NCBI GenBank assembly: GCA_963727775.1
Contig: CAVSHB010000002.1
Location: 827,377-891,376, forward strand
Reading direction: 5' to 3'
DNA from: an uncultured Nitrospiraceae bacterium
Lineage (GTDB): Bacteria; Nitrospirota; Thermodesulfovibrionia; Thermodesulfovibrionales; SM23-35
DNA length: 64,000 nucleotides
The position numbers are program-made. This document shows, piece after piece, positions 36,001-42,000 of this stretch (positions within the stretch are counted from its first letter, which is position 1; every line of letters begins with the position of its first letter).

Positions 36001-39000
36001 AATCTTGCTGTTGTCGTCGCTAACGACGTGCGTGTTTTTAAAGATATCTCTGGTGTCTATGAATTCCTTGGAAAAAATCATCCTTTGTTGGGAGTATCTT
36101 CCCGGTCATTGGGGAAATTAGCTTGTGAGATTTACGCTGGCAATGGGGTTGTGGCTTTTTTTGCGGAACCAAAGAATGAAAAAGCGATACTGAGCACACC
36201 GGAACTCTCTTTTTTGATAAGCAATCTTAAAGAAAAATGTTTCAAGGTTATAGGTGGAATCAACCTCTCTGCTTCTCACAATCCGCCAGATGACAACGGC
36301 GTGAAGGTTTATGATGAATTTGGAAGTCAACCTATTGCACCAAATGATCAACTTTTGGCAGACGTTGTGGAGCAAGTAACTGAAATCCACAGCCTGCCTT
36401 TTGATAAGGCGCTCGCGCAAGGACTCATCCGCGGGATCCCTGTGGAATTGCATCTGGAATATATTGAGACCTACGTCAAAATATACAATAATATTTATAA
36501 ACCTGAGATGGATGTACCAATTATTTATACCCCTTTATGTGGATGCGGGCTTACAACGGTTGGCGACGTACTCAAGCATCTGGGATTCCCCTTTTTAGTA
36601 CCGCCTGACCAAGGGCCAGACGGGTCCTTTTCGGTGATTCCATTTAAAGCGCCAAATCCCGAAGTACCGCAAGCAACGAAGCCGGCAATGCTCTTTGCAG
36701 ATTCTAAGGGAGCCGGTGTGGTTCTATCAAGCGATCCCGATGCAGACAGAGTCGGACTGGAGATTAAACTGAACGATGGTTCTTGGTACCATTTTGACGG
36801 CAATCAGATTGCTGCAATTCTCTGTTATTTTTTGATGCTGGATCCTAAAGGACCACGGCGTAAAGGTCTTGTAATAGAGACACTTGTTACAACCAAAATA
36901 TTGAGCAAGATCGTGGAGAAAGCAGGAGACTCATATTTGATCGATGATCTTCTGGTCGGCTTTAAGTACATTGCCGATGTATTAAAAACCTTGGAACATA
37001 GGGGATATTATCGAAACATTACCTGTTCTCCTCACCAGCTTGTGTTGGCCGCAGAAGAAAGCCACGGAGTCATTGTTGTTCCTACCATTAGGGATAAGGA
37101 TGCTACTCCAGCTTGCATGTACTTGGCGGCTCTTTACCAAATGCTACACCAGGAGGGTAAGACCCTCCTCGACTATTATATCAGTATTTTAGAGGAACTC
37201 GGTGGCTATGATTGTGTCAACCGGTCCATTATGATGACCGGGGCTGGCGGCATTTTGAAAAAAGACTGTATTATGTCTACACTCAGACAGAACCCCCCGA
37301 AGACATTTGGCGGACAGGCAGTTCGTAATATGGTTGATTATTGGGATGAGGAGATATTTGGAACTTTTTTAAGCGAGACAGATCGGCTACCCAGAAATGT
37401 TATCCAAATTCTTACGGATGCCTTTATAATCACAATTCGACCATCGGGTACGGAACCGAAGCTGAAGTTTTATTGTCAATTGATACCATTCGGAAAGCCG
37501 TCCACCGCCAAGGGAATAGAACTGTTGAGAGAAGTGAGGAGTAAGGCTGACATGACGGCCCGTACGATCTACAATGAATTATTGGGATTAATTGATCTTT
37601 CCTTAAACGAAACTGCATTACTACTGCCTGATATTGTTGACATAGATCGTAAACTGTACTTTGACCGACATACTATACCTGAGTTACATAAAGGTATCAT
37701 TACAGGGAACTTCACTGACCTGAAGGGGATTCTTGACTGGCTACAGGGTGAGTCGGCAGCAATGACTCCTGGAGCAGACTCGCTGCCGGCATTGAAAGCG
37801 CCTATAGCATATCTTTGTGACCGATGGGCTAAAGAGCCAATATTAGACCCATTATTTGACGAATTGGAAAGCTGGGCAAAGCATTAGCAATATTTTTCAT
37901 GGCTGAATTTGTTTTATCTGTTGGGGGGAAGATAGTTCATAATATTTTAAAGTAGAACCATTGAATAATGATATGAGTTTTGACATAAGTATTATTGAAT
38001 TACTAAAAAATAACCTTAAAGACCTTATCTATTTCTCTGAGAGTTTTTATAATCCCCGAAGCCTCGCCGGGATTTAGTTCATAGGTCTTTACATCAGCGA
38101 GCATGGCGTATACCCCGTCAAAAGCTCCCTTGACGTTCAGGTCATTGTCCATATTTTCCGTAAAGGAGTTTTTCATGTTCCGGACGATTTTCCCTGATAT
38201 ATCGGGTTTCATGCCTGACCTGCCTTTGATATTCTTGACAAGCTTTTGCAATGCTCTAAGTTTATCTGCGGTTGAGCGTATATGATTTTCTGAATAATTC
38301 ATCCTCTCACGATACCTGCCGTATATGAGAAAAAACCTTATATCCGATATGGTGTAACCTTTTTTAAGTAGCGTATCCGTGTATAGTATGTTCCCTTTGC
38401 TCTTGGACATCTTTTTGCCGTTGAGATATAGATGATCGCAGTGCAGCCAGAACCTTGCCATAGGATACGGCCTCACCGATTCAAGGATCGCCTTTGAATA
38501 ATCGTGATGCCGGAATAGGTTATCAATCCCTCCACAATAGATAGACAGCGTCTCATCGAAGTGCTTGCATATCATACTGGGGTCCTGAACGTTCCAGGCG
38601 GGTCTTCCTTTTCCGATCTTTGTATCCCAATAATATTTATCACCCTTCGTATATCCATGCCATAGAATGAAATCGCCTTTATTCCACTGCACTCCGGGAT
38701 ATGTGTCCTTATGAAAACGTTTTTTTTCGGCAGGCCACGCGGACATATCGAGTCCGTACAGTTTTCCGAATCCGGGAAATTTCAATGGGTCGAAATAGAC
38801 GTTCCCTTTGTACCAATACGCGACCTTACGATCAATAAGCCGCCCGATAATCTCAACGGCGTCATCTACACTTTCAGACGCCTTCGGCAGATAATCCGGT
38901 TTCTTCATTCGCAAAAGGTTTATCTCACAAATGAACTCTTTTATGTTTTTCTCCGTCAGGCGCTTGACCGTTGTTCTCTTTTTTTCAGCCATATGAATCG

Positions 39001-42000
39001 ATTTGTCCTCTATATCGGTTAAATTCATGCCCCTTTGAACAGTATGACCTGAATACTCAAGATACCGGATGAGGACATCTTCAAATAAGAAGGTCCTGAA
39101 ATTTCCGATATGGGCCCTCTGGTATACGGAAGGGCCGCATGTGAAAACGTTGACAACCTTATCATTTACGGGCTTAAAAATCTGAATCCTTTTCCCGAGG
39201 GAATTAAAAAATCTCAGCAAGACCTAACCCTCCTCTCAATCAGTCTAATTTTAATCGTTTCCACTGTCCTTTGTGAAATCTCCACGCCATGAGTACGCCC
39301 TGGACACTCATGGAAATGACCATTGCTATCCATGCGCCTGTTGCGCCATACCCCATTATAATCGATGATAAATAGGCAAGGGGTAGTCTAATAAACCACA
39401 TCGCAATAATAATAACCCACATGGTGCCCTTTGTATCTCCGGCGCCCTGAAGTCCTCCTCCCAGAACAACACTCAATGCCATAAACGGCTCGGATAGCAT
39501 GTTAATACGGAGATATCGCGTTGTCTCCTCAAGGACGGCGGGGCTCGTTGTCAATATTGAAGCAAGACTTCTGGCCCATATGAAGATGATGAGGGCCATG
39601 CTACTCATGAGGACAACGCCTGTTAAGGCAATCTTCCATCCCAACTTTTCAGCCCTCTCGGGATTTCCCGCCCCGAGGTTCTGTCCTATGAGTACGGATG
39701 CAGCCATATTCAGGGCGAATGCAGGCAGATAGATGATGCCCTCTATTCTGAGGCCGTTTGTTATAGAAGCAAGTGCTGTGATGCTTGTGTCTCCCAGCCT
39801 GCCGAGTATGTTATAAAGGACAATGCTGCCGGCATTCCAGGCAATCTGAAGTAGGGCAGCAGGCCATCCAAGGCTGATAATCTTTTTTAAGGCGCCGGCA
39901 GCTATAGCCCATGTCCCGGTATAGAAAGTTTTCCAGCGACCGGTCAGGAAGAAGAGGAGATTTACGAGCATCCCCATGATAAGTGAAACCGCGGAAGCGA
40001 CCGCAATGCCGATGTATCCCATTTTAGGAAAAGGAAAGACTCCGAAGACAAGTATAAAATTTCCTATGATATTGATGACGCTTACCAGGAACATGGTAAG
40101 CAGCGGTTTTTTTACTTCCCCACTCGCACGGAAAATCGCATTGGAGACGATCAGTATATAGTTCGGACCCAGCGCCAATGCAAAGATTTTCAGGAACTTT
40201 TCAGAGATTTCTCTTATCGTTACCGGAAATCCGGCTAAGGAGATTATTTCTTTAGCAAAGACAATCCCGATGAACATCAAGCATATGGCTATTATGACAC
40301 TGAAGATCAAAGACTGTTTTGCAACGTCTATGGCGTCGTTGGAGTTGCCTGAGCCAACGGCTCTTGAGACTAAAGCTAATGTCCCTATGCTGATAGCATT
40401 TGCCGTAATAATTACCAGGAAATATATCTGGCTTACGAAACCAACCGCCGCCTGTACATCAGAACTAATAAGACCCGCAACATAAACATCAGCCAGCCCG
40501 ACAAAGAAGTTAAAGATCATGATGAGAAATATAGGCCAGGAAAGCTGCCAGATATTACTCCATAGACTTCCATCAGTAAGATTAAGGGGTTGATTTTTGA
40601 AGGCATTCGTCATAACTCAGATAATTTTAGCATAAAGCCATATAAAGGCCGTCCGGTCATCTGGAAGGCATTGTATTTGTCTCTGTTTCTGTTAAAATTC
40701 TGAGTAAGCAGCTCGTTAATTGTTAAGGAGATTTATGACAGATAATAGGGCCTTCATTCGATGTCATAATTGCGGAACGGTCAACAGACTGCCTGCCGAC
40801 AAATTAAACAGCGGTCCAAAATGCGGCAAGTGCAGGAGCCCATTAGAGGTTTCAAAAAGTCCGATCGATGTGACCGCTGCAAATTTCGACAGGGAGGTTT
40901 TTGCATGGCCCGGGGTTGTACTCGTGGAATTCTGGGCCCCGTGGTGCGGTCATTGCCGCGTGATGGGTCCGGTAGTTGATAGACTGGCACTTGACAAGGC
41001 GGGGCTCGTAAAGGTGGTAAAGGTAAATGTTGACGAGGAGCCTGCCTTGGGAGCGCGTTTTAGGGTTAATGCAACTCCTCTGTTTTTACTTTACAGGAAC
41101 GGGAATATGCTCAGTGATATTGCAGGGGCGGTGCCGAAAGATCAATTAGAAGCCTGGATTGAATCTTCACTTCTGGCGTGAAGCTGAGTGATATGCGGAC
41201 GGTCTGCAGGGCGGGGGAAGTGCAGGTCTTTGCCATTTAGGATATTTATCACATTTTTGACATAATACGCTCTTGTAGGCAACTGCTCTGTATTTATAAA
41301 GTCCAATCGGCAATCCTTAACTCTTCTATCAACCTGAATTCTTTTATATTGTTTGTGACCAGGGTAATCCCAAGGCTTAACGCATGGGCACCGATTAGCA
41401 TATCCATTGACCCTATGGACCTTCCTGCTTTCTCAAGTGTTGCACGGACTTCTCCGTACGATTCAGCAGCCTTTTCATTAAAGTGAACAATTTCAAGCGG
41501 AAGTGTGAATTCTGCGAGTGCCTGTCGATTCTTCTCGATATGCTGGCTTTTAGCAACGCCATACTGCAGTTCAGCAAGAGTTATGGAAGAGATGCATATA
41601 TCACCTACAGGATGAGCTGAAAAGTGTTTGAGTACTTTCAGAGGTTTTTGCTTGATGATGTAAATACAGATATTGGTATCAAGCATGAACTTCATTAAAA
41701 TTGTGTGGCGGACACCCTGTAGTCTCTGCTACAGGGAGGAGCCATCCTCCTATTTGTTTTAGACTTGCTCATGGATAAAAAATATCCTATACTAAACACA
41801 TGAAACTTACGATTAAGGTTAAGCTTCTTCCAAATGCGAACCAGTATCAATCGCTCAAAAAGACCATGGCAACTTTTAATGATGCCTGCAACTATATATC
41901 GAAGGTCGCTTTTGAAAATAACAAGTTCAGCCAAGTTCCGCTCCACCATCTTGTCTATAGAGAGGTTCGTGACAAATTTCCTCTTTCTTCTCAGCTCTGT

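Follow-up and report, generated by a model that had tools for sequence, protein, structure and literature searches.

In the 64,000-nt window (the whole stretch of DNA analysed, within which positions are counted), a gene for a ligase derived from cysteinyl-tRNA synthetase (CysRS) lies directly downstream of a gene for a MATE exporter. The features of the locus are as follows.

38003..39220, minus strand: CysRS-derived ligase gene (405 aa, TTG start, pI 9.6)
39137..39139, minus strand: codon of Cys28, an invariant predicted metal ligand, followed by G29, S31 and Y33
39101..39112, minus strand: HIGN motif, residues 37-40
38669..38737, minus strand: family-specific CP1 segment WP..K[KR]RFH[KR]DTYPG..WN.GDF, residues 162-184
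38582..38596, minus strand: WNVQD, residues 209-213, in place of WHIEC (D213 corresponds to E. coli C209)
38495..38512, minus strand: RHHDYS, residues 237-242, in place of PHHENE (PHHEYS in MshC)
38399..38413, minus strand: KMSKS motif, residues 270-274
38012..38164, minus strand: DALR helical bundle, residues 353-403, after which the protein stops short of the anticodon-reading subdomain
39221..39239, minus strand: 19-nt intergenic gap between the MATE and ligase genes, containing a Shine-Dalgarno-like GAGGAGG
39240..40613, minus strand: MatE-type MATE exporter (457 aa), first gene of an inferred two-gene operon
40720..41181, plus strand: thioredoxin TrxC, divergent from the MATE gene across a 106-nt gap, part of the synteny of the source genome's taxonomic family

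The ligase reading frame has no internal stop, and its product is 29.5% identical to the CysRS of the same genome (C2:12413-13870), in agreement with the first-pass annotation of a second CysRS homologue about 30% identical to the true enzyme. Canonical CysRS is also present in all five near-complete relatives and in S. fumaroxidans. The top match of the ligase in PDB, Pfam and NCBIfam is canonical CysRS. NCBIfam rows, earlier said to be missing, do exist, all of them below cut-off: 308 bits against the CysRS model TIGR00435 (cut-off 340; two further family members score 276 and 301) and 165.5 bits against the MshC model TIGR03447 (cut-off 485). The dN/dS ratio is about 0.05-0.1 in three ligase pairs (dS 0.8-3.3) and reaches 0.2 in a fourth, near-identical one, and this purifying selection indicates that the ligase is neither a chance ORF nor a decaying copy.

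The protein had been described as ending before the anticodon-binding domain and lacking DALR_2. The C-terminal subdomain bearing R423, R427, D436 and R439 is indeed absent, but the DALR bundle is kept, as a sub-cut-off match to PF09190 at residues 353-403 (E 0.01, 16.8 bits, cut-off 22). Residues R427, W432, D436 and R439 are reported to read the anticodon in CysRS (PMC13449415), and these columns are empty in all 81 family sequences of our census. In basicity the ligase ranks within the top 6% of the source genome's 1160 long soluble ORFs, whereas the seven class I synthetases that the same motif scan recovered there lie at pI 6.1-7.9. The median pI is 9.4 for the family (n=112) and 6.0 for long CysRS (n=101); MshC has a pI of 5.0.

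Residue conservation was taken from a column census of 81 family sequences, 49 short CysRS and 124 long CysRS. Alignment to E. coli CysRS (1li5) equates C209 with ligase D213 and E238 with S242, as the first-pass annotation had it along with the presence of HIGN and KMSKS. The ATP motifs, C28, G29, S31, Y33, T68, W209 (E. coli W205) and H238 are invariant in the family, likewise the equivalents of E. coli H235 and H256; the invariance previously claimed for C28, D213, H238 and H239 holds (81/81 for the first three). Canonical CysRS holds zinc with C28, C209 and H234, and with E238 as the fourth ligand. In this E. coli numbering, C28, H234, Asp at 209 and Tyr at 237 each occur in 81/81 family members, and Glu at 238 in 0/81 (T 47, N 15, S 11, V 5, I 3). 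The core WN[IV]QD is present in 229/232 sequences; the longer WN[VI]QDPSM, once called invariant, is not, with P214 at 62% and M216 at 67% in the wide family. The equivalents of G29, S31 and T68 bind the alpha-amine in MshC (PMC9736012), and that of Y33 forms the adenylate lid. Also kept are R42, K73, R168, D172, Y174, R295 and Y303-R304, of which R168, D172 and Y174 lie in the CP1 segment and are shared with related CysRS.

Nine pocket positions conserved in CysRS differ in the family. H206, E208, H224, E238 and Q241 are 98-100% conserved in the 124 long CysRS, and every one is altered. The changes H206N, E208Q, C209D and P233R are invariant in the family and without precedent in combination; H206N, E208Q and P233R are seen neither in MshC nor in C209D CysRS. 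The reading of two lost zinc ligands as a break with cysteine was overstated, given that MshC has E238S and that two full-length CysRS above the TIGR00435 cut-off (P0151 and P0265) naturally carry Asp209.

The exporter exceeds the cut-offs for PF01554 (177 bits) and TIGR00797 (242 bits), which supports the MATE half of the earlier label, MATE/MurJ-type; the MurJ match is weak and partial (41 bits), with no MurJ row in NCBIfam. The gap to the ligase is 19 nt, not 20. The ligase is co-inherited with the MATE gene in its order, Thermodesulfovibrionales: a MATE orthologue occurs in 73/85 ligase genomes and 12/198 others (kin are not independent), and 12/85 ligase genomes have none. The MATE operon is real, and is seen here only in the order and near relatives. 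Linkage had been put at about half of loci, which is too low for the order, where MATE lies directly upstream in 63/85 ligase genomes. Among metagenome loci, many of them short, it is upstream in 11/80 (none in L032-L083). Lineages outside the order have other neighbours beside the ligase. Only MATE recurs next to it across families of the order, and no pathway partner recurs among its neighbours. PGM, TrxC, a PF0610-like gene and obg were rejected as partners, being synteny of the source genome's own taxonomic family. A BCP peroxiredoxin lies directly upstream of the ligase in 18 related loci, and redox genes lie at most three ORFs away in 6/21 contexts versus 4.6% of source-genome ORFs, a weak comparison as the list was chosen after the neighbours were seen. 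Promoter and terminator scans were at chance level (10 vs 7.4 and 4 vs 2.7), and a relaxed ARAGORN scan returned noise only.

The family is a conserved, expressed family of oxygen-avoiding microbes, wrongly annotated as CysRS, and spans bacteria and, judged by neighbours, archaea; named members bear out its presence in Thermodesulfobacteriota. No member was found on plasmids or phages, where identity is at most 36% among the matches listed that cover most of the query. A weak search for fused family proteins found none (its two matches are both CysRS with the C-terminal domain), and a single-protein scan of genome contigs gave three loci. We found no description of the family in the literature searched, most subscription papers lying outside it. 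The Syntrophobacter member Sfum_4051 is detected in two proteomes, in one of them about sixfold above CysRS. Sulfate induction of this protein was considered but supports no conclusion: it is highest on sulfate, but many synthetases rise on sulfate too. Its gene lies 6-9 locus tags away from dsrAB/dsrC.

The tree clusters the family with short archaeal CysRS-like proteins of Micrarchaeota and Hadarchaea (406-420 aa; e.g. P0141, P0321) with SH-aLRT values of 100 and 98. These nearest relatives share with the family the end point, the basic charge, S31, E71, G182 and N234; unlike the family, they have WHIEC and HHENE intact and pass TIGR00435. One sequence, P0157, is intermediate (WNVQC, HHEN). 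The grouping with short, intact-pocket relatives suggests that loss of the anticodon part likely preceded the pocket change.

MshC, the actinobacterial enzyme that ligates cysteine to GlcN-Ins during mycothiol synthesis (TIGR03447; PDB 3c8z, 8hfm), offers a close parallel. Both proteins are CysRS-derived, about 410 aa long and end after the DALR bundle. MshC reads FPHHEYS where the family reads FRHHDYS, with no Glu ligand in either and with N237Y and E238S as in the ligase. They share the alpha-amine binders and the Tyr lid, and four of the nine altered pocket positions (H224, N237, E238, Q241) are altered in MshC too, two of them to the ligase's residue. MshC zinc is described as held by C43, C231, H256 and the substrate thiol only (PMC9736012); in place of this Cys/Cys/His set the family has predicted Cys/Asp/His ligands. 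Unlike the family, MshC keeps WHIEC, is acidic and, in the one sequence compared, has lost R42 and K73. It falls elsewhere in the free tree, although a joint clade is not rejected (p-AU 0.20, with one long-branch MshC sequence). Searches of five ligase genomes turned up neither BshC nor GshB, and the source genome has no MshC, so none of the known thiol ligases was detected in them; a PIG-L deacetylase (PF02585) resembling MshB and BshB was found in 3/5.

Our leading reading, held tentatively and at somewhat below even confidence, is of a convergent MshC-like ligase that would activate cysteine or a close thiol analogue and move it to a non-tRNA acceptor. The substrate would be adenylated at the predicted Cys28/Asp213/His238 metal site and passed on by amide or ester transfer, as MshC does; we infer metal binding, cysteine use and transfer alike from sequence comparison. 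Cysteine or a close thiol is the likeliest substrate, given the invariant alpha-amine binders, W205, C28 and H234, the E238S and N237Y of MshC and the natural C209D CysRS. The acceptor would probably be anionic or phosphorylated, as the new invariant R237, the loss of two glutamates, the retained R42 and K73 and the basic CP1 segment suggest. More loosely, the product may be a thiol buffer or a detoxifying conjugate, which, or a derivative of which, MATE may export in Thermodesulfovibrionales. Several observations count against the MshC-like reading: the lack of a recurrent pathway partner, and of a fusion in a weak search, a deacetylase in only three of five genomes, the 12/85 genomes without MATE, the unprecedented H206N, E208Q and P233R, the impaired E. 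coli C209D enzyme, and a basic family keeping R42 and K73, which fits an RNA acceptor.

That acceptor defines the first alternative, unlikely yet a serious contender: an anticodon-blind RNA ligase placing cysteine or an analogue on RNA, on a tRNA 3' end other than by normal tRNA-Cys charging, or modifying tRNA in the manner of GluQ-RS (YadB), a synthetase paralogue with a new acceptor and another parent enzyme, listed in PMC9437257 and an analogy for this alternative only. The unusual basicity, the kept residues from R42 to Y303-R304 and the short basic tree relatives with intact pockets speak for it, as does an engineered CysRS without anticodon domain reported to charge selC* tRNA in vivo (PMC5389517). 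Against it, the source genome has no extra tRNA except selC*, which does not co-occur with the ligase (30/85 ligase genomes vs 59/198 others, confirming the earlier lack of correlation); the 158 ligase loci hold only six tRNA genes, all of ordinary isotypes; SepCysS is found in 0/5 genomes; and the HH-x-Y-S change parallels MshC, while the MATE link is left unexplained.

It is improbable that the enzyme scavenges a toxic cysteine analogue (homocysteine, selenocysteine, S-sulfocysteine or oxidised cysteine), which would be adenylated, cyclised or discharged and exported by MATE. Without E238 and with the new R237, the pocket might be wider and better suited to a side chain that is anionic, the protein is abundant with a linked exporter, and no partner enzyme would be required, none being recurrent. 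However, an invariant CP1 segment peculiar to the family points to a second substrate that is itself conserved, MshC also lacks E238 yet uses cysteine, and the HcyBio homocysteine route is found in 0/5 ligase genomes.

The jointly unprecedented H206N, E208Q, C209D and P233R would also suit a ligase for a non-thiol amino acid (Ser, Asp or a phospho- or sulfo-amino acid) at a harder Cys/Asp/His site. We consider this quite improbable, as W205, C28, H234, H235 and H256 are invariant, and proteins that use cysteine or are annotated as CysRS provide a precedent for Asp209 and for Ser238.

There is a slim chance of a back-up CysRS that charges tRNA-Cys under zinc scarcity or oxidation of the normal enzyme, with another metal and one thiol ligand fewer. 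The natural C209D CysRS, the short archaeal relatives that pass TIGR00435 and the redox neighbours are in its favour. The family shares with canonical class Ia CysRS of the HIGNFR type (TIGR00435; PDB 8qhp, 1li5/1u0b) the fold motifs, C28, W205, H234, H235, H256, R42, K73 and R168, but differs in the missing subdomain, the nine pocket changes, among them all five nearly invariant positions, and the higher pI. Moreover, none of 144 annotated neighbours is a zinc-uptake or Zur gene, Sfum_4051 exceeds CysRS in cultures for which no stress is described, and Zur-regulated CysRS paralogues are reported to retain their metal ligands (PMC2770081).

A dedicated cysteine persulfide synthase, after the PLP-dependent side activity reported for CysRS, is very improbable. 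Engineered C209D strongly lowers the translation activity of E. coli CysRS while persulfide production is reportedly kept (PMC10655014), and K73, K266 and K269 are present, but the reportedly essential K76 is a lysine in 6/81 family members (also in just 36/124 long CysRS), and the invariant HIGN, alpha-amine binders and CP1 motif would go unexplained.

It is scarcely credible, finally, that the gene encodes a CysRS* for selC* tRNA or is a cysS copy in decay. CysRS* of Desulfobacterales is likewise described as a second cysS copy without anticodon domain, in anaerobes (PMC5389517), and the source genome encodes two tRNA-Cys of the selC* type along with a second SelB, a selC*-selB pair lying on another contig. 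Unlike CysRS*, the family has no PTVS in CP1 (0/119 proteins), no selB* linkage (SelB in 0/158 loci) and no selC* co-occurrence, and both selC* copies carry GCA and G1:C72 in place of the UCA and A1:U72 of CysRS* hosts. Both ideas were rejected by motif, locus, tRNA, co-occurrence and dN/dS tests, consistent with the first-pass view of a distinct, uncharacterised ligase family.

Synthetase paralogues without an anticodon reader have repeatedly proved to be new enzymes (MshC, GluQ-RS, CysRS*), and EpmA is a synthetase paralogue with a new acceptor from another parent enzyme. The family adds a traceable history of two probable steps, truncation followed by rebuilding of the pocket, with P0157 as an intermediate, and the abundance of Sfum_4051 in a cultured organism leaves its function open to direct testing. 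If RNA acts as acceptor, this would be new tRNA chemistry. The fullest form of the MshC-like reading, which we regard as rather unlikely, is that MshC was invented a second time, independently, and that anaerobic bacteria and archaea make their own low-molecular-weight thiol by joining cysteine to a carrier resembling a phosphorylated sugar or a nucleotide, with the thiol or its conjugates exported by a dedicated Thermodesulfovibrionales MATE. If the ligase is a thiol maker, lineages in which no BshC, GshB or MshC was found would gain an identified redox buffer, and anaerobes would have a counterpart to glutathione, mycothiol and bacillithiol.

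The ligase is encoded by one reading frame in the window:

38003-39220, minus strand: ligase open reading frame, 405 aa, uninterrupted

Strong PF01406 matches in the host genome number just two, this protein and the full-length CysRS, and they share 29.5% identity, in agreement with the 30% of the first-pass annotation. Its adjacency to the MatE-type exporter gene (MATE), which lies on the upstream side, also holds, with a gap of 19 nt (not 20) that contains GAGGAGG. The protein had been described as ending before the anticodon-binding domain. Indeed, it lacks the final 55-60 residues of CysRS, the site of anticodon contacts (named in the available text of PMC13449415), and a DALR bundle is weakly detected. 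The ligase scores under the cut-offs of both the cysS and the mshC profile.

The 120 best matches are 65-93% identical to the ligase and nearly always 399-413 aa long, with remote family members down to 40-45% identity. Of 232 sequences, 229 contain WN[IV]QD and all but one contain RHHDY. The earlier view that this is no decayed cysS stands, given a dN/dS of ~0.05-0.1 for informative pairs. Within the order Thermodesulfovibrionales, 85 of 283 genomes (at least 80% complete) carry the ligase; by family, and leaving out the window's own genome, the tallies are 21/51, 31/64, 31/49 and 1/11, with zero in nine further families. A phylum-wide sample places it in 7 of 201 genomes, every one within the same order. 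Named members include those of Syntrophobacter fumaroxidans (A0LQL5) and Desulfoferrobacter suflitae, and some loci look archaeal from their neighbours (tRNA intron endonuclease, MTD). A canonical CysRS was present as well in each of the five near-complete relatives that we examined. We found no description of the family in the open literature, including the accessible portions of PMC5389517 and its supplement, PMC9437257, PMC7609411, PMC2770081, PMC5370408, PMC8762117, PMC5424206, PMC13449415, PMC9736012, PMC10655014 and PMC5660078. We further note that genus g157 carries the ligase without MATE linkage, broken in one genome (G392, locus L173) and short in another (G393, L174), that the ligase is split in two pieces at locus L021, and that a cysS copy on ~500 Klebsiella plasmid records, ~29% identical to the ligase, falls outside the family.

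Alignment with E. coli CysRS equates C209, H234 and E238 with D213, H238 and S242 of the ligase, and H206, E208, P233 and N237 with N210, Q212, R237 and Y241. E238 is the fourth zinc ligand of the E. coli enzyme, and the first-pass annotation counted its replacement among the changes to the cysteine-selecting zinc site. To take this as a break with cysteine would be an overstatement: MshC, which is known to ligate cysteine to an acceptor other than tRNA, has the same E238S and N237Y state, and FPHHEYSAAHAES in MshC aligns with FRHHDYSKAILES in the ligase (a second MshC was also compared). Because MshC carries both changes, they should be no sign of departure from cysteine. The zinc ligands of MshC are C43, C231 and H256 together with the thiol of its substrate; T46, T83 and G44 bind the alpha-amine and Y48 forms a lid over the adenylate (available text of PMC9736012). 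In the ligase family, G29, S31, T68, Y33, C28, H238 and W209 are kept in 81 of 81 sequences.

Asp209 occurs in two of 124 long CysRS examined (P0151 and P0265), both with a full anticodon domain and above the TIGR00435 cut-off. These natural C209D proteins (WHIEDTA), putative CysRS, lie on two separate branches, with N237 altered in both; one of the proteins is from Thermoplasmata. Engineered C209D greatly lowers the translation activity of E. coli CysRS according to the available text of PMC10655014; the primary paper behind that statement names, in its accessible part, C28D and C28/209D. Compared with MshC and the C209D CysRS, H206N, E208Q and P233R are found in the ligase family alone.

We built three quick trees without bootstrap (FastTree, 90 rows; IQ-TREE C20 on the first 335 residues, 47 rows; a third with 41 rows). 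The ligase family forms one group in all three, with FastTree support of 99 with P0205, a degenerate relative in which both C28 and HIGN are gone, and 61 without it, and support of 99 and 99 in the 47- and 41-row trees. Its sister throughout (98, 100 and 98) is a separate family of short CysRS-like proteins named from Micrarchaeota and Hadarchaea (P0141, P0304-P0348), although a common basic composition could draw the two together. These proteins are 384-448 aa long, mostly strongly basic, lack the anticodon subdomain, keep an intact pocket (WHIEC/HHENE) and share S31, E71, G182 and N234 with the ligase. Since the ligase family joins short proteins with an intact pocket, truncation likely came earlier and the rebuilding of the pocket later. 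The micrarchaeal P0157 is intermediate (WNVQC with HHEN) and sits on a long branch; P0189 and P0191, also short, fall outside this group in the 47- and 41-row trees. The lone MshC stands apart from the ligase family in the free tree, and their forced union is not rejected (p-AU 0.20, 41-row analysis); convergence of the MshC-like changes is favoured rather than shown. Three further CysRS of 768-797 aa (P0133, P0168, P0424) have long N-terminal additions, with PF00291 (PLP enzyme, cysteine-synthase type) on P0424.

The evidence on the acceptor is conflicting: the MshC-like changes would point away from tRNA, and the charge to a polyanion. Median pI is 9.4 in the ligase family (n=112) and 6.0 in long CysRS (n=101), against 6.1 for the host CysRS and 5.0 for MshC, and the net charge of the ligase ranks in the top 6% among 1160 long soluble ORFs. 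An RNA acceptor would fit this charge and the retention of R42 and K73, both gone in the MshC sequence compared, but it is rather unlikely given the MshC-like changes, and no dedicated tRNA was found: the only extras in the host genome are two of selC* type. The basic charge may also be inherited, because the short archaeal relatives are equally basic. A plain back-up enzyme charging tRNA-Cys is highly improbable.

Identity with CysRS*, compared through its published description, was rejected on the absence of three published features. Matches to selC*-like DNA (89 of 283 genomes) show no association with the ligase, at 30 of the 85 genomes that carry it and 59 of the 198 that do not (p 0.40); the first-pass exclusion of the selB*-linked cysS* is borne out. 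By the tests made, the ligase belongs to none of MshC, cysS and cysS*, and an MshC-like working is a proposed reading only. Outside the window (C1:1561763-1566859, L120), the host genome carries two tRNA-Cys(GCA) genes of selC* type. A SelB gene follows one of them after ~30 nt, and another SelB, 67% identical to it, is at C3:368287-370155. A pair resembling selC*-selB* is present in this nitrospirotal genome with no cysS* beside it; the available text of PMC5389517 names selB* for two deltaproteobacterial groups only. No tRNA-Leu(GAG) was called in this 96.8% complete genome.

A MATE orthologue (E <=1e-90) is found in 85 of 283 genomes, 12 of them without the ligase. The first-pass annotation had it directly upstream in about half of order and bacterial loci; the order-wide count is stronger. 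MATE accompanies the ligase in 73 of its 85 genomes, and in 63 of these it immediately precedes the ligase in the same orientation (once with a 1.2-kb insert), although kin genomes are not independent. The match persists within families (f3, 31/31; f10, 28/31), and MATE is missing in 9 of 22 in the window's own family. Among 40 wider loci, in two of which the ORF picker missed the ligase, MATE is the sole neighbour recurring across families. Other lineages differ: in 18 related loci the gene immediately upstream encodes a BCP peroxiredoxin, in seven DinB lies downstream, and Syntrophobacter-like loci have a CNNM transporter (144 of 158 selected neighbours scanned; three loci unmapped). Redox genes, from a post-hoc list, are no more than three ORFs away in 6 of 21 contexts versus a 4.6% background, which is only suggestive. 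Searches of five ligase genomes recovered PIG-L in three and BshC, GshB, SepCysS or HcyBio in none.

Around the locus, genes judged from translations to be insertion-sequence-like (TnpB-like, IS256-like, IS607-like; 33326-34525, 41834-42964, 45281-46501, 47076-48861) or PIN-domain-like toxin-antitoxin genes (32527-32934, 41294-41695) are present. YvcK and a phosphoglucomutase-family gene whose 735-aa product is longer than usual occupy 34585-37887 on the opposite strand; relatives have a 540-560-aa PGM there on the ligase's strand, which suggests local replacement.

The Syntrophobacter member, Sfum_4051, is detected in proteomes. In the accessible data of PMC5947623, total iBAQ, interpreted as log10, is 7.12 versus 6.34 for the canonical CysRS Sfum_1634 (sulfate 6.35/5.06, fumarate 5.78/4.98, M. 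hungatei coculture 5.40/5.33, M. formicicum coculture 4.25/4.71), and its raw row, which lacks column heads, apparently gives 11 peptides and 31.8% coverage. The sulfate pattern is not taken as induction because many synthetases also rise on sulfate. The available part of PMC8691401 lists five unique peptides, with higher levels in pure culture.

Beyond the first-pass annotation, the analysis adds the agreement with MshC at HH-x-Y-S, the existence of natural C209D CysRS, kinship with the short CysRS of archaea, proteome evidence and a count of MATE over the whole order. EpmA, a synthetase paralogue with a new acceptor, is an analogue. The invariant motifs strongly indicate that the ligase would adenylate an amino acid, and a Cys/Asp/His metal site would probably pick one with a thiol. 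The activated amino acid might then pass to an acceptor that is not a tRNA and is probably anionic, a tentative step to which we give somewhat less than an even chance overall, and the product would be exported by MATE, as the gene linkage in this one order suggests.
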